A stretch of DNA of 64,000 nt from a virus. Its lineage: Duplodnaviria > Caudoviricetes. The position numbers and the translations under genes were made by a program. The notes under the pieces were generated by a model. The model saw only the letters and a program-made list of their open reading frames with translations. It was not told the DNA's origin and made no database searches. Positions 43,119-62,250 of this stretch are shown piece after piece (within the stretch, counting starts at the first letter, position 1; each line of letters starts with the position of its first letter). The DNA is taken from positions 1 through 64,000 of IMG/VR virus record IMGVR_UViG_3300001598_000001. One strand, given 5' to 3'.

Positions 43119-46019
43119 TTATTCGCCTCCTTCATCATCATCTTCTTCAATATTTAAATCATCATCTTCCACGTTATTATAGTTTGATCAATTAAACATA
43201 GCTTCAATTAATCGATCTACCGCAATACTTGTGGTATCAGATACATCTTTTAAATAATATTTATTTCCTAAATATTCATATGTACCTTCTTCATTATCTT
43301 TAACAGGTGCAAAAGTTGGACCAGGAGGAATTAATTCAACAATCTTTTCTCCTATAATTTCCCAAGCAAATCCTCAGTTAAAATTAGACAATGTTTGAGA
43401 TAGTTTGTGACAATAGAATAAGAACTCCTCATATGATAAACCAGTATCTAATAATTGGATTTGTAATTCTTTGATAATAGCATCATAGATATTAGAACGT
43501 AATTCAATATAGTCATCATCAAAAGTGTCCTTATTATATAATGCAGTTAAACGTTTAATTTGTTTTTTAGATGTGTAGGATGAATACATCTTTTTAACCT
43601 TTGCTAATTTAATTTCGTCAAAACTATTTTCATAATCTTTTTCATATGTTGGTAGTTTTGATATTTTATATTTCTTATTTCCTGTTTGAACATCTTTTGC
43701 AAATTTAATATCAAAATCAATTGATTCAAATTCACGACAGAGTCTATTCATGGTACAATCAGAAGTGATTAAAGGAGAATATTTTTGATAACGACGAATT
43801 AACATTTTTTCTTCTTCTGTTTGATTTTCTTTCTTTAATAACTTTTTAAATTTAATTCCAAACATATCACGACTGATTTGATTATAAGAATCTTCAAAAC
43901 GTTTAAATTTTTGATTTAGTTCTGGATATAAATATCTAAAGAAATAAGGTTTTTTAGCAACAACAATAGCATTGTTTTTAATCTTTTTTAAACGGGTTTC
44001 AGCATCGTCTTCAGGATCTATTTTTTCAAATTTCTTTCATTCTGAAGGTAAGAATGGTTTATCTGCTCCTTTAATACGGTCAATTTCCTGTCCAACAATT
44101 TCACGTAATAATTTAATACGAGTCATGATGATATTATATTGATCTTCATGTCCTGGTTTATTAAAGATTGCAGCCATTGCATAAAGTATAGTTGCAGTAT
44201 TAGAAAATCCACCAACTCCAGTACCAAAACCTTTCATAACTGTTTTTGTAATATTGTTAACCGTCATTTTTGCTGGAACGGCTAATCCTTTTTCATAAGT
44301 GATAATACTGTGATCTTTATGAGAACCTTTAATAAAATATTCATTATCAGTAGATAATACAATATCTCCATCAAAGTCAGCGTCTTCGGCTCTAAATACA
44401 GCAGTGTCGTATGTAGAAAAAACAATACCACTGTTTAAATAACGCAACCAATAATCTGCTTCGTCATTATGTAACAAAACTTTACTTGGATTATGTTCAT
44501 GGACATCAATCATTGGGCTACGACATAAATCAACGATATCAGCATTTCTTTTATTTCAGAACGATGACCAAATAGTGTCTTTTGGAACAATACCAACTGG
44601 ATCTAATCCCAAAGCAGCTTGACACTGAGCTACAGGATCGCTAACCATAAATTGATAATTTCCTTTGATTCATATTTTTCCTAATTTAGCATGATTAATA
44701 GATTCGGCAATATTTTTATAAATTTTATATTGAACATAACTATCTTGTAAAAAATCAACATTTTTCACAACAGCTTTCATTGCTGATGTTTGAGCAATAC
44801 TGTACATTGAATCATAATCTACGTCATTGTCTTTTACACCAAATGAATATAATAATGTTGGTAATAATTCACCAGAACAAATTTGTTGAATTCAATTTAC
44901 TGTAGGTTGAATTAATTGCTTAATATCTTCTTTACTCAACTCAAGAGATTGAATATATTGATAATTAGCTAAAACATATTCTTCATCTTGACGTTTGTTG
45001 TATCTAGCTACACCTCAATGAATTTCACCTTGTTTAGCATATTCACAATATTCTTGCCAACTATTATAATATTTATAAGTTTTAAATTGTGATTCGGAAA
45101 GTAAAACATCAATATCATTGATATTGTATTCTACACCCCAACGATCTCTAATGGTGAAGATATTATGTTTATGAGCATATTCTTTAAAATCAAATGTTGC
45201 TAAATTACCTTTAATAAAACAAGATCTTGCTACAAATGAACAAGGGGTATAAGATAAATTCATATCTTGTGCCCAAAGCTCAGCAAAATAAGGATCAATT
45301 AATCCTTGTCCATCAGCACAGTTTAATTCTAAGTCCATAATTCTTGGATCAATATATGATTTACCATTTTCATCTTTACAAATAAAATCCACTTTTTCGT
45401 TTGGTAAAGTACGATAAAAATCTTTTATTACACAAACTCTTGGTGTTCTTACCCAAAGAATAGAGGAAAAAGCTAATGCAAAATAAGCACTATACTTAGC
45501 TAAAACAAATTGAGAAGTTTTTTCATCTAATCCACAATTTAATCTTTTAACTAAAAAATCATACAATTCTTCATTTACAAAAGTAGCTGTGTTACGTCTA
45601 ATTTGTCCAGACCCAGAACATAAATAAACATAATGAATTCCATTAACATTAAATCCATTGACACGAAATTTATGAAAGTCAGATTTTTTACCGTCTAAAT
45701 AAACGTTAATAATATCTTTAACAAATAATTTTTCAGTAATCGCTCTATCTAAAATATGTGCTTCTTTATACTTACCTTGCTTTTTATAAATATGCATGGT
45801 ACTACGTAATTGACTAATTTTATTAAAAAGTTTATTATGTTCTTGATAATTTCCATAGTAATATCTGATTTGTTGAAAAATTAGATTATCACCAATTGAA
45901 ACAATATTTTCTTCTTTTTCTCCACGTGATATGGTATAATTTTCAATTTGACAATTGTTAGCAACTATAAACGAAGCAGGTAATTTAAAGACTTGATATA
46001 AGTTTTGACAAACTGCCAT
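43119..46019 (-). CDS. yonO: Single-subunit double-psi-barrel DNA-dependent RNA polymerase (SPbeta YonO / cellular RdRP-like), 966 aa; 7 TGA=Trp
   Basis: SGQIR, ADGQGLI, FIKG, NYQYIQ, GKI[W]IKGNYQ, RSPM, catalytic DADFDGD, EIDRIKG, KKPYFFRYLYP, FAWE. One frame with only TGA interruptions; joins three track ORFs. Confidence 0.92.
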
Positions 46020-46030
46020 TGCTTTCCTCC

Positions 46031-46396
46031 TTAATTATTATCAATTGAAATTCAATCAGAATCTAATGCATCTAAATTTTCAGCATCATATTTTTTATAA
46101 TATATTTCTGTGTGTTGTATCATAAAATCTATCATCTCAGATAATTCTTTGTCGTTTTTAACATAAAAAACATTATCATAAATATTATTATTTTTATAAT
46201 TATTTAAAGGTGATATATTTAATAAAATAGTGTAATTGTTTTCTTCGAATGGTGTATTATTATTTAAAATAAAAATATATTCTTTGTCTGAACTAGCATC
46301 AATAATATTAATGTTTAATCAGGTATTTTGTAATTTTTGATTATATTTATTATTAATTTCATTTAACACGGTTTGTATTTCTTCTGGTGTAATCAT
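46031..46396 (-). CDS. Hypothetical protein, 121 aa; 2 TGA=Trp
   Basis: AGGAG RBS; open to TAA if TGA is read through. Confidence 0.7.
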
Positions 46397-46487
46397 AGTT
46401 ACCAATCTCCTCAAAATTTATATTTTATATCATAATTTGTTTGATTTTTTAATTAACTATATAATATAGTTAACCTCATCTATTAAT

Positions 46488-46516
46488 ATTATATTGGGAA
46501 AAATTTTATTGTGCAA
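46488..46516 (-). promoter_or_regulatory. CCCAT-type promoter for the RNA polymerase operon
   Basis: TTGCAC-17bp(..TTCCCAA)-TATAAT. Confidence 0.75.
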
Positions 46517-46826
46517 GTAAAATTGAATAAAAAGAAAGAAAAAAAAGAAAAGTAACAAAAGAAATAAATAAAGAAATAAAAAAACAACTCATACTTCGTA
46601 TTCGTTGTAGTGCCTACGGCGTGGAGTGATTTTTTAAATAACTCATATATTCGTTATTATAAAAAATAACGTTATATTTGGTGGTGATTAATTATTATAT
46701 AAAATATATAAATAATATTAAAGATAATAAAAAAATTTTTAATTATTTTAATAATAATTAGATAAAAAACCTAATGTTTAAAAAAAGAAAAATAAAAAAA
46801 AGAAAAAAATAAAAAACTATTTTATC

Positions 46827-46855
46827 TTGACATTCTTGTAAAAACCCATTATTAT
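46827..46855 (+). promoter_or_regulatory. CCCAT-type promoter (probably leaderless)
   Basis: TTGACA-17bp(..ACCCAT)-TATTAT; ATG 8 nt downstream. Confidence 0.75.
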
Positions 46856-46863
46856 ATTGGTGT

Positions 46864-47694
46864 ATGATACTTGATTGGTATAGTTATTGTGAAACAGTTC
46901 ACAGTACAAAAAAATTATTAACAAAAGATCCTGCTGATCACAAGAGTTTATTTAAGCAGGAAATTTTCTATGTTCGTTATTTAATTTATAAAAAACATTA
47001 TACTAAATTACAATGTTATACAGAGTGGCGTAAAATTAAAAATGGAAGAGCAAATATTTTGAAAAAAGATCCCGATCAATTAGCTATAGAATTTTTTAAT
47101 ATTTATCAAGCCGCTAATAGGATAAATAGAATTCCTGGTCCTTTATCTGAAATTATAATTTTTAAAGATGAAGTAGATTATTTGAATTCTCTTCAAGTTC
47201 CTAAATGGATTAAAGAATTTTGGATGGCAGAGCTAATATATTATAAGTTTGCTACACAAATTTATAGTCAGGTAGAGTTAACACCAACAGTATTGTCTTG
47301 GTGTCTTAGACAGGTTACTGATTTAAAAGCTTCTAATAGAACATTTTTTGACCATCGAGATCAAATCGGAAAATACAATGCTCAGTTTGAAGTTATTAAA
47401 ATTAACAATTTAAACAATCATGAATATAATATTATGACACCAAAATTTTTAAACACCGACAATAAAAGTCCTGTATTAATTATTAATAACTTAGATCAAA
47501 TTAAGACAGGAATTAAATTAATTAAAGATAATTATGAAATTTGTGAAAATTGTGGTAAAAAATTTATTAAAAGTTCCAAGAGTCAAACACAATTATGCAC
47601 AGGATGTTATAAAAAATATCGTCGAAAATACAAAACCGAAAAACAAAAAAAATATGACGATCAAAAAAGTCTTGAAAAAATCAGAGAAAATTAA
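46864..47694 (+). CDS. Hypothetical protein with C-terminal zinc ribbon
   Basis: CENC..CTGC plus basic tail. Confidence 0.75.
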   Translation: MILDWYSYCETVHSTKKLLTKDPADHKSLFKQEIFYVRYLIYKKHYTKLQCYTEWRKIKNGRANILKKDPDQLAIEFFNIYQAANRINRIPGPLSEIIIFKDEVDYLNSLQVPKWIKEFWMAELIYYKFATQIYSQVELTPTVLSWCLRQVTDLKASNRTFFDHRDQIGKYNAQFEVIKINNLNNHEYNIMTPKFLNTDNKSPVLIINNLDQIKTGIKLIKDNYEICENCGKKFIKSSKSQTQLCTGCYKKYRRKYKTEKQKKYDDQKSLEKIREN

Positions 47695-47817
47695 GTTTTC
47701 TGGACAGCTAAATCATGTTTACTCTTTTATGGAAGAGGAGTAATAAAAATTGGTTTTATATTTATATAAAACCTTACGAAATGAAAAGAAAAAAGGATAA
47801 AAAGGAGAAATAAACAA

Positions 47818-49053
47818 ATGACAAAAAAAGAATTTTTAGAGTATGTTGACTCTTTTGATAGAGATACTGGTGAATTTACTGAAGAAGAATTATATGCTAT
47901 TGGAACACAATATAAGGAATTACCAGTTTCAGAAAAAAATTGGGAAGAATTGGTTAAAATACTTGGTGTTAATAAAACAGGTGAAAATTTTAGAACTTGG
48001 ATTAAAAGCAGACAATATGCCGATGGAACAATTAAAAAGAATATTCAATTATTATCTGGTCAGACAGTTGAAGATTTAAGTTTTCCAGAAGCTGAAGAAA
48101 AAATTGAAGAAATTAAAAGAGATTTATACAAACAACAAGTAAAAACTAGAGATACTTGAAACGCTTATAGAAGAGATGTACGTAAAGATGCTCGTGAAGA
48201 AAATTTTTATGATATGTTTGCGGAAGCTGTTAAAACATATCCAGCATTACCTCAATATAAAACATTACCAGTTATTTCTACTGATAACGAGGCTGTAATG
48301 TTATTATCAGATATTCATTTGGGTATGGAAATTAATAATTTCTTTAATCATTATAATTTAGAAATTGCTAAAAAAAGATTTGATACTTATATTGATGAAG
48401 TTATTAAAATGTGTCAATTACATCAAGTTCGTAGATTAAATATTTGTAATCTTGGTGATTGTATTCACGGTATTATTAATGTTACTGGTAGAATTGAAGC
48501 CGAAATGAATGTAATTGATCAAGTTATGCAAGTTGCAGAAATGTTAGCTCAAGGATTAAATAAATTACAAAATGCAGCTTCTGAAGTTATTTACAGAAGC
48601 GTTACTGATAATCATAGTAGAGCTATGGCCAATTTCAAAGAAAATATGGAATCTGAAAATCTTAGTAGATTAATTGATTTTTATCTCAAGCCAAGATTAA
48701 AAGATACTTCTATTATTTTTGCTGAAGATAATTTAGATTACGATATTTCATTCTTTGAATTATTAAATGGTCAAAAGGTTATTTGTTCTCATGGTCACCG
48801 TGATAATATTAATGTAGCGGTACAAGGATACTTAGGTGCCACTAAACAATTTGTTGATTATATTTGTTTAGGACACTTCCACGAAAGCAAAATGAAATCG
48901 TTCCAAGGCGCTAAAGTAATTGTAAATGGTAGCGTTTGTGGTTCTGATTCTTATGCTCAATCTAAGAGATTATATGGTGATCCAGAACAAACTTTAATAA
49001 TTATAGATAATAATTCAGTTATTATAGATAATGTTAAGCTAAATATTCAATAA
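47818..49053 (+). CDS. Metallophosphoesterase with N-terminal extension, 411 aa; 1 TGA=Trp
   Basis: LSDIHLG, LGDCIHG, DNH, SHGH, GHFH, NGS; TGA 48157 joins two same-frame ORFs. Confidence 0.85.
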
Positions 49054-55592: not shown

Positions 55593-57212
55593 ATGGAAAC
55601 TAAAAAATTATATTTTGATATTGATGCTAGTACCATAGATATTAAGCCTCTATTACGTAAAGATTTTTTAGAGTTGTCAATGAAAGCTATCAGTAGTGCA
55701 AATCCTAATAGAAACAATTCTTGGTTTACTAGAGAATCTATGGAAAAATCTATTGACACCTTTAGAAACAAACCAATTTTAGGTTATTTTGAAAACGGAG
55801 ATTTTGTTAGTCACAACGGTGAATGAACCAGTGATTCCGAAACTCAAATGGAATATTGGGACACATTAGGTAAAAAAGGAGAAAGAATTTTAGGACTTAT
55901 TCGTAGTGAAGATGAAGTTAAAATCGTTGAAGATAAAAACGGATTATCTTGAATTTGTCTTTCTTGTGCTTTATGAACTCAATATAGTTTTAAACAAGTT
56001 AAGCGTTTATTAAAAGATGCAAAACGAGCAAAGCAAACAGGTGAAGCTACTAAAAATGTTTCGGTAGAAGTAGATATCACTGATTATGAAATGCTTGAAA
56101 ACGGCGTTATGAAAATTAACGCGTTTAATTTAATCGGTATTACTATTCTTGGTTCTAGAAATGGTGTAAAAGTAGAACCAGGTATTGAAGATGCTGAATT
56201 ATCTGTTGTTGATATCATGGGTAGAGAATTATATGAAAGACAGGCAAATAGTATAAGACTTGCTTATGAAAGATTAGACAACAAAGTACAAAAGGAGGAA
56301 TTTTCTCAAATGGATAACGAATTAAAAACAGAAAACATTGAACAACCAGTTGTTCCAGAAAATTCTGATGTCATTGTTAACGATGTTATAGTAGAAGAAC
56401 CAAAAGAAGAAAACATTGTTATCGAAGAAGCTGAATCCACAGAACCTGTTTCTGAAGAACCAAAAGCAGAAGAAGTTATCATGGAAGAAAAAACTGAATC
56501 AATTGAAAATGTTGAAACAGATAATTCTGTAAACGATTCAGAAAACGTTCCAGAAGAATCTACAGTTATTGTAGAAGAAAAAACTGAAGAAATTAATGAA
56601 CATCTAGAAGAAAACAACGATTGTCATTGTGAAGAACATGATGAAAATCCCGATGAAGAAGAAAAAGATGACGAAGATGAAGATGAAGATGAAGAAGAAA
56701 TAGAAGAACCAAAAGAAGAGGAACATGAAGAAGAAGAAATTTGCCCTGGATGTGGTAAAAATCCTTGTGAATGTGAAAAACATACTTGCGAAGAGCAAGT
56801 AGATTCTGTTGATTCTATTGAAGTCATTAATTGGGAAGAAAAATATGGTATTCTAGAGCAAGAATTTAACACTTTAAAAGAACAATATGAAAATGTTGTT
56901 AAAGATTTAAGTATTTATAAAAAAGCTGAATTTTTAAGTCATGCTAAAGAATTATTAATTCAATCAAAGATTACTGAAAAAGCTGTTGAAGATTTTTACA
57001 CAGCATGTGAACAAGATGAAATTACTAATTTAGATGATTTAAAAGTTAAAGTTGCTTTGTATATGCTTGATAAAACTATTAAAATTGAAGAAGTTGGTTT
57101 TGAAACTTCTGCAATTATTACACCAGACACTAAATCTGCTTTTGAAACAAACAAAGGCAAAGAAGCAAAGAAGACAAATTGGTCCACTTTGCAAGAATAT
57201 ATTGGTAAATAA
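55593..57212 (+). CDS. Prohead protease / scaffold fusion, 539 aa; 3 TGA=Trp
   Basis: NRNNS, NKPILG, DFVSH, SVEV, GITILG..EPG, then an acidic scaffold region; TGA at 55824, 55950, 55974. Confidence 0.8.
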
Positions 57213-57231
57213 AAAAGATCTTTTATTTAAT

Positions 57232-57260
57232 TTGCATTTTTTATAAAAACCCAATATAAT
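57232..57260 (+). promoter_or_regulatory. CCCAT-type promoter for the capsid operon
   Basis: TTGCAT-17bp(..ACCCAA)-TATAAT. Confidence 0.75.
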
Positions 57261-57447
57261 ATTATTATATTAGAGCTAGGAACTCGTTAAACTCATCTCG
57301 TATATTTTATTTATACGTATATTTATGGATTAAAACATTAATTATATTAATTATTATTTTTTATAGAGCCGAACTATAAAAAATTTTGTATTATATATAA
57401 TAATGATTTTAATATTTTTAAAAAATTTTTTAAAAGGAGAAACAATT

Positions 57448-57987
57448 ATGGCATATGTTTTTAAAAGAGGCAAAATGGCTAGTGGCGTTTTAGATGTCAT
57501 GTTAGCTAATGCTGTTTGTACAAGCGGTGTAAAAGATGGTTCTTTACTAGTTCTTGGAAACTTAGCTTCAGATACTACTTACAGTGCTACAGGTGTTGAA
57601 TATGACACTTATGTTGCTACTGCTCCAGCTGCAGCAACAAACGAAGTTGTTATTTGTGATTATGCTGGAATTTCAGAAGGCATTATTTCAGGTAACGAAT
57701 ATAAAATGGGAAATAAATTATATGATTTAGAAGTACCAGCAGGTGAAATCTTCAGAGTTAGAAGATTAGGATTACATGATAAATTCTGGTTAGGCGAACA
57801 TAACTTTGTTGGAAATTCTCCAGTTGTTGGCGAATATGCAACTGCAACTGCAGGTGACTGCAGACATACTCCAGCTGCATCATTACCAGCATCAGGTTAT
57901 GCAGTTAAAATTTTATTATCAGAAGATTTAACAGCAGGTATGGCTTCAAAAGGATTAATTTATCTTTGCGAAGTTGTCCAATTATAA
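57448..57987 (+). CDS. Head decoration / capsid-associated structural protein
   Basis: Lies between protease and capsid; Ala/Gly/Thr-rich; AAGGAG RBS. Confidence 0.7.
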   Translation: MAYVFKRGKMASGVLDVMLANAVCTSGVKDGSLLVLGNLASDTTYSATGVEYDTYVATAPAAATNEVVICDYAGISEGIISGNEYKMGNKLYDLEVPAGEIFRVRRLGLHDKFWLGEHNFVGNSPVVGEYATATAGDCRHTPAASLPASGYAVKILLSEDLTAGMASKGLIYLCEVVQL

Positions 57988-58006
57988 TTAGGGAGGGCTT
58001 AGAGTT

Positions 58007-58498
58007 ATGAAAAAATATTTTGGATACACAAAAAGCTCTGATGAAGTTTTTAATTCATTAGTTGAAAATACCCTTGAATTAGCTAGAGAAGCTCACGAAG
58101 GTAAAAAATCAGCAAATTATGCTGAAAAGAATTCTGACTTACTTGTTGCTATGGGTAAGAAAGCTATTGAAGGTACTAGATTTGAAGCTGATTTTGAAGC
58201 TGAAGGTTTAGCTATCTACAATAAGCCAATGGTAAAATCTAACACCACAGTTAGAGAAAACTTCAACGCAGTTATTGCACAAGTTGTTACTGCAATAGTT
58301 CCTGAAGTTGTCAACGATACTTTCTCACAATTTATCGCTGAAGTTCACCAAGTTGGTTATGGTGAAACTGCAAGATTCATTATTGAATCTAACGATTTAT
58401 TCAAAGTCAATTCTAAAGCTGAAGGCGTTAGAAAAGGCGTTGATCAACCTATGTTTGATGATGAAATTACTGTAAATGCAAAACCAGTCACAGTCGAT
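58007..58498 (+). CDS. Major capsid protein, exon 1
   Basis: FIAEVHQVGYGETARF; ends AKPVTVD at the 5' splice site. Confidence 0.85.
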
Positions 58499-59001
58499 TA
58501 ACCTGTTTACTGTCAAGTAAACTAACCAGTCGGCATATACAGAAATGTGTATGTAGTGCTAAGAGTTATTAGTCTTAGCCAACACTATCTTAATTGCTGG
58601 AAATCCCTAAAGCTATATAAACTACAACGTAAAACCTATTATTAGGTTTAAGCGTGAATGTTACGAAAGTAGAAAAAATTATATAGATGGCGCATGGTCA
58701 AATCCTAAACGCATATCCAATCATAAAATGGGAAATCAGCATCCAAGCTCGAAAGAGAAGGTTCAACGACTATCTCCCGTGAGGAGAGTAGGATCAAGTG
58801 ATCCGAAAGAGATAGGCCTTAACGTGTCATGACGAAGGATATAATATAGTCTATGCTTATATGAGAATATAAGAAGTTCACTAAAGAACTGTGTGAAAAA
58901 TAACGAATTCACATGAATTATGAAATATTTGAATATATGAATAAATAATCTTTATATATATTACAATTAAAAATAAAATAAACCCACTATAAAATGAAAT
59001 A

Positions 59002-59065
59002 TAGTAGTGGGACAGCAGGTTCGAAACTGTTTTCAATGACTTATCTAGTTGAATTACCACTATTA
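59002..59065 (+). ncRNA. Three-way-junction RNA element (copy inside the intron)
   Basis: TAGTAGTGG/CCACTATTA, AGCAG/CTGTT, TTCAA/TTGAA. Confidence 0.55.
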
Positions 59066-59068
59066 TTA

Positions 59069-59182
59069 TATTTACCTGATAAACAGTCTGCTGGAGAAAA
59101 TAAACGTATGCATGATTTAGGTTATCACAAACTTTGTGATTGTGGTACAAAAACTTGGGTGTATACTAAATATTGCAATTAA
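59069..59182 (+). pseudogene. Deleted remnant of an endonuclease gene paralogous to 59962-61497
   Basis: QSAGENKRMHDLGYHKLCDCGTKTWV versus QAAGEVARMHNKGYYRICDCGTKTWI. Confidence 0.85.
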
Positions 59183-59240
59183 TAACAATAATTAATTGTA
59201 GTATATATAAAGATTATTAAATATATTCAAAATTTCTCAG

Positions 59241-59834
59241 TGTTGTATTGATTGGTACCCATTTGCTGCTGGAATTTTCGACATGGGTAACTTTGCCCTA
59301 AAGATCGGTAGATCTTTCATGGCATACATTTTCTTAAAGGCTGTTAGAGGTATGACAGCTGCAACTAGTGCTTATGGTGCTGCTTATACTGTTGCTGGTG
59401 TTACACCAACTTTATTTGGTACTTTAAGAGAAAGAGTATCAGCTGCTAATGGTGGTATGAATGTTATTGCCATTGGTACTGCTGTTGCTTTAAGCCAATG
59501 TTCATTAGGTGGAAACTATCAAGTTGAAATTGGTGAAGAAATGAACAAAGTTGGATACTTAGATCAATATCTTGGTGTTCCATTAATTGGTTTAAAGAAC
59601 GTTTTAGTTCCAGGAACTACTAACACTACTGCTCAACTAGCTTTACCAGATGACAAGATTTATATGATTCCTGTCGGTGGAAGCAGACCAGTTAAGATCG
59701 TCTTCGAAGGCGACGAAGTTAGCGTTATGTTCAACCCAGAAACTACTTCTGACAAGAGATATGGATTATCTGTTGAATTAAGAGTTGGTGTTGAAGCTGT
59801 CTTAGGTGCGAAGTACGGAACTATCACTTTATAA
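59241..59834 (+). CDS. Major capsid protein, exon 2 (spliced product 361 aa)
   Basis: CCIDWYPFAAGIFDMGNF..GYLDQYLGVPL..PVKIVFEG. Confidence 0.85.
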   Translation, partial: CCIDWYPFAAGIFDMGNFALKIGRSFMAYIFLKAVRGMTAATSAYGAAYTVAGVTPTLFGTLRERVSAANGGMNVIAIGTAVALSQCSLGGNYQVEIGEEMNKVGYLDQYLGVPLIGLKNVLVPGTTNTTAQLALPDDKIYMIPVGGSRPVKIVFEGDEVSVMFNPETTSDKRYGLSVELRVGVEAVLGAKYGTITL

Positions 59835-59835
59835 T

Positions 59836-59864
59836 TTGTAAAATTATAAAAAACCCGTTATAAT
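59836..59864 (+). promoter_or_regulatory. CCCAT-type promoter (CCCGT variant) of the endonuclease gene
   Basis: TTGTAA-17bp-TATAAT. Confidence 0.7.
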
Positions 59865-59870
59865 ATAAAT

Positions 59871-59929
59871 AAGTGGGACAGTGGGTTGCAAACCATTTCT
59901 AAATACCTATATTATTTAGATTACCACTT
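59871..59929 (+). ncRNA. Three-way-junction 5' leader of the endonuclease gene
   Basis: AAGTGG/CCACTT, AGTGG/CCATT, TCTAAATA/TATTTAGA. Confidence 0.55.
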
Positions 59930-59961
59930 TTTTAAAAATCTATATAGGAGAGGAAAATACA

Positions 59962-61497
59962 ATGATAACCGTTGATAAAGAAGACATAGTAGAATATTAT
60001 ATTAATCAAAACCATTCAGTCCAACAAACAGCTGAACATTTTAATATTAATTGTAAAACTTTTTTTGGATGGCTACACAGATTAAATATTCACAAAGACA
60101 AAACATTAAGTCAACAAAATGCACAAAAAGCATTAAAAGATAAGCACATTATGGAAAATAATCATCCAACTAAAGATGAATTATATCAATATTATATTGT
60201 TCAAAATCATTCTGAAACAGAATGTTGTCAATATTTTTCAGTATCACGTTCGTCTATTCAACGTAGGATTAAAAAGTATCAATTAAATAAAGATACACAA
60301 CAAATTCAAAAATGTACCCAACATACTGTTTTAAATAAATATGGTTATAATTTTGTTTTACAAGATCCACAAATACAAAAAATAAATAAAGCACGACTAC
60401 AAGAAAAATACGGTGTACAAAATATTGCACAGCAATATATTCAACATTTAGATATATGGAATGATAAAGATAAATTTGTAAAATTTTTAAAACAGCAAAA
60501 TGTAAAAATGACAGCAGTAAGTTTGGGTAGATATTTTAATGCTCATATAAGTACTTGTTTGAGAAAAATCCATAGTTTGGGGTTAGAAAATCTTATTGAT
60601 ATTAAGCCTGCTACATCGCAATATGAACAAGAAATTATTGATTTATTACATAATGAGTTTAATATTGATAATATTATTCAAAATGATAGAACAGTATTAA
60701 ATGGGAAAGAAATTGATATTTATTTACCAGATTATAATTTTGGAATTGAATTTAATGGTGAATATTGGCATTCAGAAATTGGTCACCCTCATTATGCTGA
60801 AAGAAATGGTAGATCCACTTATCACCAACAAAAATCTTTAGAGGCAGAACAAAAGAATGTTTTTTTATTTCATATTTTTGAACATGAATGGTGTGAACCA
60901 TTTACAACTGTAAATCCTAAATTTACAAATAGTCGTAAAAAAATTATTAGTCGTTTAAGATCAATATTACATTATAATGAAAAGACTATAGGTGCTCGTC
61001 AATGTGTAATAAAAGAATTAAGTTATGATGAAAAAACACAATTTCTAGATTGTAATCATTTTCAAGGTAATGATATATCTAGTAATTATTATTTAGGATT
61101 ATTTTATCAAAATGAGTTGGTTAGTTGTATGACTTTTGGTAAATCTAAATACAAAAAATATACCTGGGAACTAAGTAGATTTTGTAATAAAGAAAATTAT
61201 CAAATTCTTGGTGGTGCCTCAAAGTTACTTAAATATTTTGTAGATAATAAAATGTGTAAAAATGATATTTTAGTTTCTTACAGTGATATTACTAAAACTA
61301 GTGGAAATTTATATAAAACATTGGGTTTTACTAATACTCAAATTAATGATCCTAATTATTGGTGGGTTAATTTTAATACTGGTGATGTAAGAACTAGATA
61401 TCAAGAACAAGCTGCTGGTGAAGTAGCGCGTATGCATAATAAAGGATATTATAGAATCTGTGATTGTGGTACAAAGACATGGATTTTGAAAAAATAA
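59962..61497 (+). CDS. Free-standing Hef-like homing endonuclease (HTH repeats + PD-(D/E)XK nuclease + GNAT/Mom-like C-terminal domain)
   Basis: EIDIYLP..GIEFNGEYWHS..FHIFEHEW; NHFQG, WELSRF, GGASKLL, SYSD, GNLYKTLGF. Confidence 0.82.
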   Translation: MITVDKEDIVEYYINQNHSVQQTAEHFNINCKTFFGWLHRLNIHKDKTLSQQNAQKALKDKHIMENNHPTKDELYQYYIVQNHSETECCQYFSVSRSSIQRRIKKYQLNKDTQQIQKCTQHTVLNKYGYNFVLQDPQIQKINKARLQEKYGVQNIAQQYIQHLDIWNDKDKFVKFLKQQNVKMTAVSLGRYFNAHISTCLRKIHSLGLENLIDIKPATSQYEQEIIDLLHNEFNIDNIIQNDRTVLNGKEIDIYLPDYNFGIEFNGEYWHSEIGHPHYAERNGRSTYHQQKSLEAEQKNVFLFHIFEHEWCEPFTTVNPKFTNSRKKIISRLRSILHYNEKTIGARQCVIKELSYDEKTQFLDCNHFQGNDISSNYYLGLFYQNELVSCMTFGKSKYKKYTWELSRFCNKENYQILGGASKLLKYFVDNKMCKNDILVSYSDITKTSGNLYKTLGFTNTQINDPNYWWVNFNTGDVRTRYQEQAAGEVARMHNKGYYRICDCGTKTWILKK

Positions 61498-61569
61498 ATA
61501 TAATATTGTACTATGCCTTCTTTATTGAAGGTGTTTTTAATTAAAAGGAAACAAAAGGAGAAAAAAATT

Positions 61570-62250
61570 ATGGCTGAAACAAAAAATACTACTGCAGTAA
61601 AAACTGCAACTACTAAAACTACTACATCTACTAAAGAAAAACAATTAGAAGAACAAGTTGCTCAATTAATGGAACAAGTTAAAATTTTAACTTCTGCATT
61701 AAATGCAACTGCACAATCTAGCAATGTTGTAACTACTCCAACAGCAGTTAACAGTAATTCAGATGTTTCTTTAGTTTATATGTCTGATAGTTTAGGTGTT
61801 ATTCGTTATGGTAATGGCATTGAATTAAATTGCACTAGATTTGGTGAAGAATTTGTCATTACTCGTTCTGCTTTCGATGAAATCGTTGGAAGATATAGAA
61901 AGTGGTTCGATGCTGGTATGTTAGCTGTCTCATATAAAAATGTTGATGTAGCTGCTGCTAAAGGTGTTAGAACTGATAAAGAATATGCTTTAAGTGCGGA
62001 AAAATTACATGATTTAGGTAAAATATCTGTTCAAGATATTGAAAAATTATGGGAAGAAAACCCTACTGAAGCACATAGATTAAGTATTGTTACTTATTTT
62101 AAGAGAAAATTTATTGAAGGTAAAGAATCTGGATTCCGTGATAGAAGCAGAGTCGATTGCTTAAATAGATTAACTAACGGTGGATTTGCTCAAGAAAGCA
62201 GAGAATTAGGTGGAGATTATAAAATCAGACCTACTAATATGAACGATTAA
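61570..62250 (+). CDS. Conserved protein downstream of the capsid gene
   Basis: AAGGAG RBS; position. Confidence 0.7.
   Translation: MAETKNTTAVKTATTKTTTSTKEKQLEEQVAQLMEQVKILTSALNATAQSSNVVTTPTAVNSNSDVSLVYMSDSLGVIRYGNGIELNCTRFGEEFVITRSAFDEIVGRYRKWFDAGMLAVSYKNVDVAAAKGVRTDKEYALSAEKLHDLGKISVQDIEKLWEENPTEAHRLSIVTYFKRKFIEGKESGFRDRSRVDCLNRLTNGGFAQESRELGGDYKIRPTNMND

Follow-up and report, generated by a model that had tools for sequence, protein, structure and literature searches.

A portable three-way-junction RNA leader of phage endonuclease genes, predicted to hide the ribosome-binding site

Homing endonucleases are needed in small and well-timed amounts, and for phages of Gram-positive hosts only the T4 paradigm is available as a guide. 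The locus studied here raises the question of what a structured sequence, found twice ahead of endonuclease sequence, does for the gene behind it. It lies in a stretch of 64,000 nucleotides (the window), the first 64 kb of a complete phage record of 131,489 bp with terminal repeats, and both copies are situated in the structural-gene region of the phage. A preliminary description of the window had proposed two copies of a three-way-junction RNA leader with compensatory stem changes, serving either as a cis-regulator (attenuator or autorepression site) of a toxic nuclease or as a small RNA partner of the nuclease. The two copies are present, with all the motifs and stems listed for them, at the positions given below.

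Both copies are on the + strand. Copy A occupies positions 59868-59932 and scores 79.2 bits (E ~1e-21) with covariance model R1. Its P1 stem pairs AAGUGG (59871-76) with CCACUU (59924-29) and leads through the junction segment J1/2, GAC (59877-79), into P2, AGUGG/CCAUU (59880-84 and 59893-97), which is closed by the loop GUUGCAAA (59885-92), a palindromic G-UUGCAA-A. P3 follows P2 directly and pairs UCUAAAUA (59898-905) with UAUUUAGA (59913-20) around the loop CCUAUAU (59906-12), an anti-Shine-Dalgarno (anti-SD) sequence. The junction is completed by J3/1, UUA (59921-23), and a run of six U residues stands at 59928-33. A sigma70-type promoter, TTGTAA-17-TATAAT, is found at 59836-59864 (+ strand; 10 of 12 matches, the best of the region). 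It ends 8 nt before GUGG, so that the predicted transcript start of the endonuclease cassette falls at P1 or a few nucleotides before it, and copy A does begin near the predicted +1, as had been proposed. Promoter-like hexamers also occur inside copy A at 59886-59915, with TTGCAA in the P2 loop and TATATT/TATTAT in the P3 loop (9 of 12 matches); these hexamers fall on loops that differ between members of the family, are not conserved, and are probably there by chance.

Copy B (59002-59065; 66.6 bits with model R1) has an intact core. Its P1 is formed by 59001-10 and 59057-66, its P2 is AGCAG/CUGUU with the loop GUUCGAAA (G-UUCGAA-A), and its P3 is UUCAA/UUGAA. A 21-nt pattern common to the two copies occurs twice in the window against an expectation of 0.01. 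The three-way junction is the minimum-free-energy structure of the + strand (z ~ -2.6), and it was not obtained on folding the - strand. Model R1 found no leader copies beyond A and B in the 131-kb SPbeta-like phage genome.

Pattern scans of viral, metagenome and MAG/genome contigs yielded about 50 distinct true homologues, some of them in metagenomes of rumen and digesters, others in large phage contigs or in one MAG each of Romboutsia and Clostridia. When the 5' core was dropped from the pattern, most matches were chance ones in coding sequence (L040-L054); these were set aside, as were L009, L010, L017, L024, L035, L055, L057-59, L061-62, L072, L098, L107, L112, L115 and L124. The homologue search by covariance model that had been suggested was thereby borne out: model R1, built from the roughly 50 homologues, recovers all of them, adds copies missed by every pattern, and places copies A and B at 79 and 67 bits. 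The compensatory changes first noticed between the two copies are real. In the model alignment of 60 distinct rows, 91.7% of the cells pair, compared with 39-61% when the partners are slid, and 14 of the 19 pairs change on both sides; the observed values were reached in none of 500 shuffles. The near-invariant core consists of GUGG-GAC-AG...UU and UUA-CCAC, together with the basal pairs of P2 (A-U and G-U) and of P3 (U-A). About 22 near-invariant nucleotides surround the junction while the other stems vary, a contrast that overstates the invariance of the core and understates its true variability, the search patterns having fixed the core and the A4 alignment having been fitted to the model; the covariation itself is solid. 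The G-U pair in P2 never varies and only the + strand takes up the fold, and the leader is therefore read as a structured RNA feature and not as a DNA feature.

Nothing in Rfam matched the element, at gathering scores or at E<=10, when the Rfam check that had been proposed was made. When the leader was compared with 50,697 phage records by blastn, only chance matches came up, and none of the papers covered by literature searches describes an endonuclease leader motif. Among the 151 Clostridia genomes sampled, the leader was present in two, one of them the genome at the centre of the search, and from this rarity it follows that the leader is mainly carried by non-integrated phages. Judged by its covariation and distribution, it is a real, well-supported, widespread and uncatalogued RNA family. 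Promoters that score 9 of 12 matches or better occupy the matching position in 17 of 51 leaders (shuffled mean 3.5); seven of them are perfect, and these sigma70-type promoters end 3-16 nt upstream of the leader.

The two copies in the window have different fates. The free-standing homing endonuclease gene behind copy A (59962-61497, + strand; PHROG 3339/559, 'homing endonuclease') encodes 511 amino acids with N-terminal HTH repeats and DUF7487, and a sequence search of the PDB with this protein gave no match. It stands between the capsid gene and the next gene, an order that is the same in the relatives L084, L111, L096 and L116. The capsid gene is YonB-like (SPbeta-type, PHROG 4088; protein atlas score 0.99 to PF27364 clusters) and is split into exon 1 (58007-58498) and exon 2 (59241-59834), both on the + strand, by a group I intron of about 742 nt (58499-59240, + strand). 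The catalytic core of the intron (58527-58873, + strand) matches Rfam RF00028 with 55.7 bits against a cut-off of 50, a match that needed lax filters on a short stretch, the default Rfam filters on the whole window having missed the intron. Blastn matches it to annotated phage group I introns. Its boundaries were inferred from the uninterrupted homologues L096 and L084, with which the capsid exons align end to end, U (58498) being the last base of the exon and G (59240) that of the intron. The assignment to group I is given by a score above the Rfam cut-off and by exons that rejoin in frame.

The 3' tail of this intron carries copy B and an endonuclease gene remnant (59078-59182, + strand) that retains the last ~30 codons followed by a stop. 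The remnant is 57-60% identical to residues 481-511 of the 511-aa protein (blastx E 2.6e-10 in a small database; E 8e-8 in a second search). Copy B is therefore best read as a deletion relic in the capsid-gene intron, in which an internal deletion joined the leader to the last 30 codons. Its P3 loop has no partner downstream, the best match being only 5 nt long and not at an SD, because the deletion of about 480 codons also took the SD and the start codon. The persistence of the leader in the copy without the open reading frame had been taken as a hint that it has a function of its own; as the 5' flank of an internal deletion that has lost its P3 target, copy B is no evidence of this. Copy A is the complete working unit. 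Both endonuclease-derived sequences of the phage genome thus carry the leader, and no other recognisable endonuclease gene was found there.

The genes behind the leader in other members of the family are mutually unrelated. They encode GIY-YIG, HNH, LAGLIDADG, DUF7487/HTH and DUF559/Vsr-like proteins, TnpB, and RepA_N/DnaD-like proteins; the TnpB (OrfB) genes, of IS605 type, follow the leader in L034/L039 and L038. Like copy B, several others (L003, L020 and L121) are found immediately downstream of the core of a group I intron. Because the leader precedes unrelated nuclease families as well as replication initiators, it is read as a portable cis element and not as the partner RNA or autorepression site of one nuclease. 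The idea of a cis-regulatory leader of the nuclease gene is supported by this distribution, and that of autorepression by, or partnership with, the 511-aa protein has to be given up, the same core heading unrelated nucleases and replication initiators.

The best clue to mechanism is a pairing that had escaped the first reading, as had the palindromic nature of the P2 loop and the position of copy B inside a group I intron. In copy A, the P3 loop CCUAUAU is complementary to AUAUAGG at 59942-48 (+ strand), which overlaps the Shine-Dalgarno sequence AGGAGAGG (59946-53), and AUAUAGG stands 13 nt before the ATG at 59962. In nearly every homologue both the P3 loop and the SD region differ in sequence and their complementarity is kept; further pairs are CCUACAC with GUGUAGG and CUACUCCU with AGGAGUAG. 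With the number of paired bases as the score, a G-U counting one half, and the comparison confined to the 24 nt that lead up to the start codon, a complement of the P3 interior scoring at least 7 precedes the member's own start in 63% of members, compared with 7% when the leaders of other members are used (Mann-Whitney p 5.6e-19). From the end of the matched site to the start codon there are 5-13 nt, and the GG of the SD lies within the site. The leaders of the TnpB genes (L034/L039 and L038) have their P3-loop target just upstream of the SD, without overlap. A second, 'decoy' target of the P3 loop was looked for in the leader family and not found, only the single site being present. The covarying complementarity predicts that the P3 loop pairs with the SD region within the leader RNA; the pseudoknot does not appear in the minimum-free-energy fold, as such structures are beyond the folding tool. 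At 7 bp the pairing is, by estimate, comparable in strength to that between the SD and 16S rRNA, and repression may therefore be mild.

A sub-class of leaders (L080, L091, L095, L100, L029, L031, L114 and others) has a conserved P3, CC-GAAAC...AGUA-GG, that resembles the AGUA/GAA motif of loop E and the sarcin-ricin loop. Its 3' strand, UAGGG, resembles an SD and can itself pair with the anti-SD. This sub-class mostly precedes RepA_N/DnaD-like replication initiator genes and not nuclease genes.

The P2 loop had been called T-loop-like. This description does not fit the family variants UAGCUA, UGGCCA, CUGCAG and GGCC; what the loops have in common is self-complementarity. A T-loop or tRNA-like element was likewise rejected, with no tRNA or tRNA-like Rfam match on the element and a T-arm register that does not pair. 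A palindrome of at least 6 nt is present in 11 of the 23 distinct P2 loops (null mean 1.4, maximum 6 in 2000 shuffles). Five palindromic hexamers were seen, UUGCAA (copy A), UUCGAA (copy B), UAGCUA, UGGCCA and CUGCAG, so that a palindromic hexamer is kept in the apical loop despite changes of sequence. In several P2 loops the palindrome spans just 4 nt or is absent (L074 and L095), and no partner was found for them. A perfect 6-nt complement further downstream occurs in only two of the 51 members (null 1.7%), in both of which the loop is non-palindromic: UUCCUG in L037 (4102-4164, - strand) and CGUCAA in L064 (12108-12170, - strand). The complement forms the loop of a small downstream hairpin, and these two, whose leaders lie directly downstream of tRNA genes, look like an intramolecular kissing version of the leader family. 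Because these two outliers match a downstream hairpin loop instead, the P2 loop is marked as a kissing loop. For most members the sole available partner of the P2 loop is a second copy of the same loop, which suggests that it is an RNA-RNA kissing loop able to form homodimers.

Three leaders stand 1.3-1.7 kb apart at 45693-48764 of the phage record of L019 (G001), all with the loop UUCGAA; the loops being identical, leaders of different genes could pair with one another. Phage G002 and the window each have one UUGCAA and one UUCGAA loop.

Taken with the covarying loop and ribosome site, these features lead us to regard the leader as probably a translational brake acting in cis, in which the anti-SD P3 loop hides the ribosome site, P2 is a kissing module, and the nuclease is kept low. 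The leader would be the 5' part of a mobile nuclease-gene cassette, made both from its own sigma70-type promoter and on read-through transcripts. The three-way junction would present two loops, P2 and P3. Pairing of the P3 loop with the ribosome-binding region, which lies 13-20 nt downstream of P1, would create a pseudoknot that denies the 30S subunit access to the site, and translation of the toxic endonuclease would stay low. In intron-borne copies the same pairing would also keep ribosomes out and so spare the folding of the intron. The 6-nt palindrome in P2 of most members would allow two leader RNAs to form a homodimer, and in the two exceptional members P2 would pair with the downstream hairpin loop of the same RNA. 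The fold, the covariation, the loop-SD complementarity, the palindrome excess and the link to unrelated genes come from sequence analysis, and from them we infer repression of translation by the pairing, the formation of dimers, and any means by which the repression might be lifted.

Dimerisation through P2 is reasonable to expect; a tighter repression at high transcript levels as its consequence is speculation. We put forward only tentatively, and as a less than likely elaboration, a two-input RNA device in which P3 is rewritten for each ribosome site and P2 dimers tighten repression with transcript or phage copy number, which would make the leader a copy-number-sensing brake on the nuclease. 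If true, this would be the first kissing-loop homodimer controlling the translation of a bacterial-virus mRNA, and it would give the orphan int-alpA motif, discussed below, a function.

The near-invariant nucleotides of the junction exceed what a passive scaffold would seem to need, and they hint at a ligand or a protein. The highest-rated of the rival explanations builds on this: the leader would be a regulated switch, with the junction as a small-molecule pocket or as the site of a host or phage protein (including an RNase) and the anti-SD pseudoknot as the expression platform, so that a signal would switch translation on or off where a brake would only damp it. Hiding of the SD in a pseudoknot is familiar from riboswitches such as SAM-II and preQ1-II, and a switch would suit the invariance of GUGG/CCAC, GAC, UUA, the A-U and G-U at the P2 base and the U-A at the P3 base in about 60 distinct rows while the other stems vary, although this invariance is inflated by patterns that fixed the core. 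We nevertheless consider a switch improbable: no Rfam riboswitch match was found, the downstream genes have no common metabolic theme that would point to a ligand, and a search of the leader family for an alternative 'ON' pairing or a decoy site found neither.

If P1 and the U run acted together as a terminator, most transcripts would end at about 65 nt and leave an attenuator or a stand-alone short RNA acting in trans or with the nuclease. The U run of the preliminary description is indeed present in copy A, where CCAC is followed by UUUUUU in a transcript that begins right after the promoter, but it is not a trait of the family: UUUU directly follows CCAC in only 6 of 51 members, and attenuation as the family mechanism is not supported. 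Instead, the base after CCAC and the one before GUGG vary together and extend P1 by a pair, and a terminator scan makes no call at the P1/U6 site of copy A. The P3 loop is moreover fitted in cis to the SD of the next gene, and the downstream proteins are mutually unrelated. The survival of copy B without an open reading frame, which would also suit a short RNA, is accounted for by the deletion. A terminated RNA of this kind is therefore very unlikely.

We give little credence to a 5'-terminal stabiliser, which would guard the mRNA from 5'-end-dependent RNases (RNase J/Y in Firmicutes), either with the SD pairing as an incidental feature or as a second role beside repression. It would leave the covarying loop-SD match, the palindromic loop and the invariant junction unexplained, and in the two thirds of members without an obvious promoter of their own the leader would be internal to longer transcripts. 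Its appeal is that 5' stem-loops stabilise Bacillus mRNAs and that, where a promoter is present, its -10 box stops 6-14 nt short of GUGG, which leaves few or no unpaired 5' nucleotides. A DNA-level element, with the palindromes as operators for a DNA-binding dimer, or with the repeat as a site of recombination or homing, is barely credible: palindromic hexamers do stand at a fixed distance downstream of the promoter, and I-TevI autorepresses at an operator, but in DNA the conserved G-U wobble would become a G-T mismatch, only one strand gives the fold, the covariation in P1 and P3 is nested and long-range, the L037 and L064 loops are complementary to downstream hairpin loops, and five different hexamers stand ahead of unrelated proteins.

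As a translational brake, the leader represents a known kind of control, sequestration of the ribosome-binding site (RBS) of homing-endonuclease genes, with a design like that of int-alpA, and it carries an unusual self-complementary loop. The closest relative by design is int-alpA (Rfam RF02996), an orphan candidate RNA typed 'sRNA'. As read from the Rfam consensus and five real instances, with loop-site matches in L144-L147, int-alpA is also a three-way junction of ~60-70 nt ahead of a gene, and its P3 loop CCUUxx is complementary to a downstream xxAAGG, the two changing together. Membership of the leader in int-alpA was rejected, there being no detectable homology in either direction. The RF02996 model found nothing at E<=10 in positions 57000-62000 of the window, in the phage's own genome or in 20 homologue loci, and nothing at E<=1 in five other leader-bearing phage genomes; in a control it scored above gathering (35.8 bits) in 33 of 151 Pseudomonadota genomes. 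Model R1 gave at most 9.6 bits on true int-alpA loci. The alpA region of E. coli K-12 yielded no int-alpA copy, and the true instances came from Pseudomonadota genomes.

The two RNAs also differ in architecture. The int-alpA consensus is P1-UA-P2(loop GACGU)-GAAAA-P3-CU-P1', whereas that of the leader is GUGG-GAC-P2(palindromic loop)-P3-UUA-CCAC, which gives junction segments of 2/5/2 nt (UA, GAAAA, CU) in the former and 3/0/3 (GAC, none, UUA) in the latter. In int-alpA, P1 is variable and rich in GC, and P2 has 4 bp and a conserved GACG(U) loop that is not palindromic. Its hosts are Pseudomonadota, whereas the leader family belongs to Clostridia-type and SPbeta-like phages. In four of the five int-alpA instances the target of the loop occurs twice, first as a separate site and then as the real SD, whereas the leader family has a single site. 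In L144-L147 the first P3-loop target of int-alpA closes the Rfam model, and the second follows after another 10-15 nt as the real SD; the double target suggests a two-state switch for int-alpA.

The function predicted for the leader has its precedent in T-even phages, where an RBS hidden in RNA structure controls I-TevI, I-TevII, I-TevIII, segB and mobE and protects splicing of the td intron (PMC2988022). There, too, the SD of an intron-borne or free-standing homing endonuclease gene is hidden by RNA structure, which limits the nuclease and protects splicing (PMC2988022). The T-even structures are simple, gene-specific hairpins that form on read-through transcripts only, a late promoter inside the hairpin giving rise to a translatable mRNA. 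The leader, by contrast, is a conserved and portable three-way junction that the cassette promoter precedes, and it would be present on every transcript; a promoter inside the structure, giving a transcript without the inhibitory strand, was not found, the leader's promoter lying upstream of the whole leader. It differs also in the predicted pseudoknot pairing of loop and SD and in its extra self-complementary loop.

In that loop the leader resembles the HIV-1 DIS and guanidine-II RNAs, which carry a 6-nt self-complementary sequence in a hairpin loop of 6-8 nt, often with flanking unpaired purines. The P2 hexamer of the leader varies between copies and stays palindromic, as kissing-loop dimerisation sites do, and the corresponding dimer is predicted on this pattern; the loop complements in cis of L037 and L064 support it indirectly. 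Unlike the HIV-1 element it stands in a bacterial-virus mRNA leader and not in a retroviral genome, and unlike guanidine-II it is without the ligand-binding ACGR loop. With its self-complementary loop the leader may be an instance of prokaryotic gene control that involves mRNA dimers.

The leader module has passed among, or has been taken up by, no fewer than five unrelated nuclease families as well as TnpB and some replication initiators, and its specificity loop is retuned for each ribosome site. If our reading is true, it provides a testable mechanism for an uncatalogued RNA class and suggests a role for int-alpA, and the leader would be a compact natural part (~60 nt with a 7-nt target) for tunable translational repression.

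At the capsid locus itself, the slot taken by the cassette at 59835-61512 of the window also holds a free-standing endonuclease cassette in L084, L111 and L096, phages in which the capsid proteins share only 47-76% identity. With a free-standing nuclease next to an intron that has lost its own, the arrangement recalls 'collaborative homing'. From these gene arrangements the capsid gene is, by all appearances, a repeated target of the leader-nuclease cassette. The same capsid gene has an intron at another position, after residue 104 and not 164, in the related phages L020, L116 and L013. This residue-104 intron carries the leader together with an endonuclease gene, which is intact at 504 aa in L020 and L116; in L013 the contig ends after 147 aa of the intron endonuclease. 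L116 has a second leader after the endonuclease gene.
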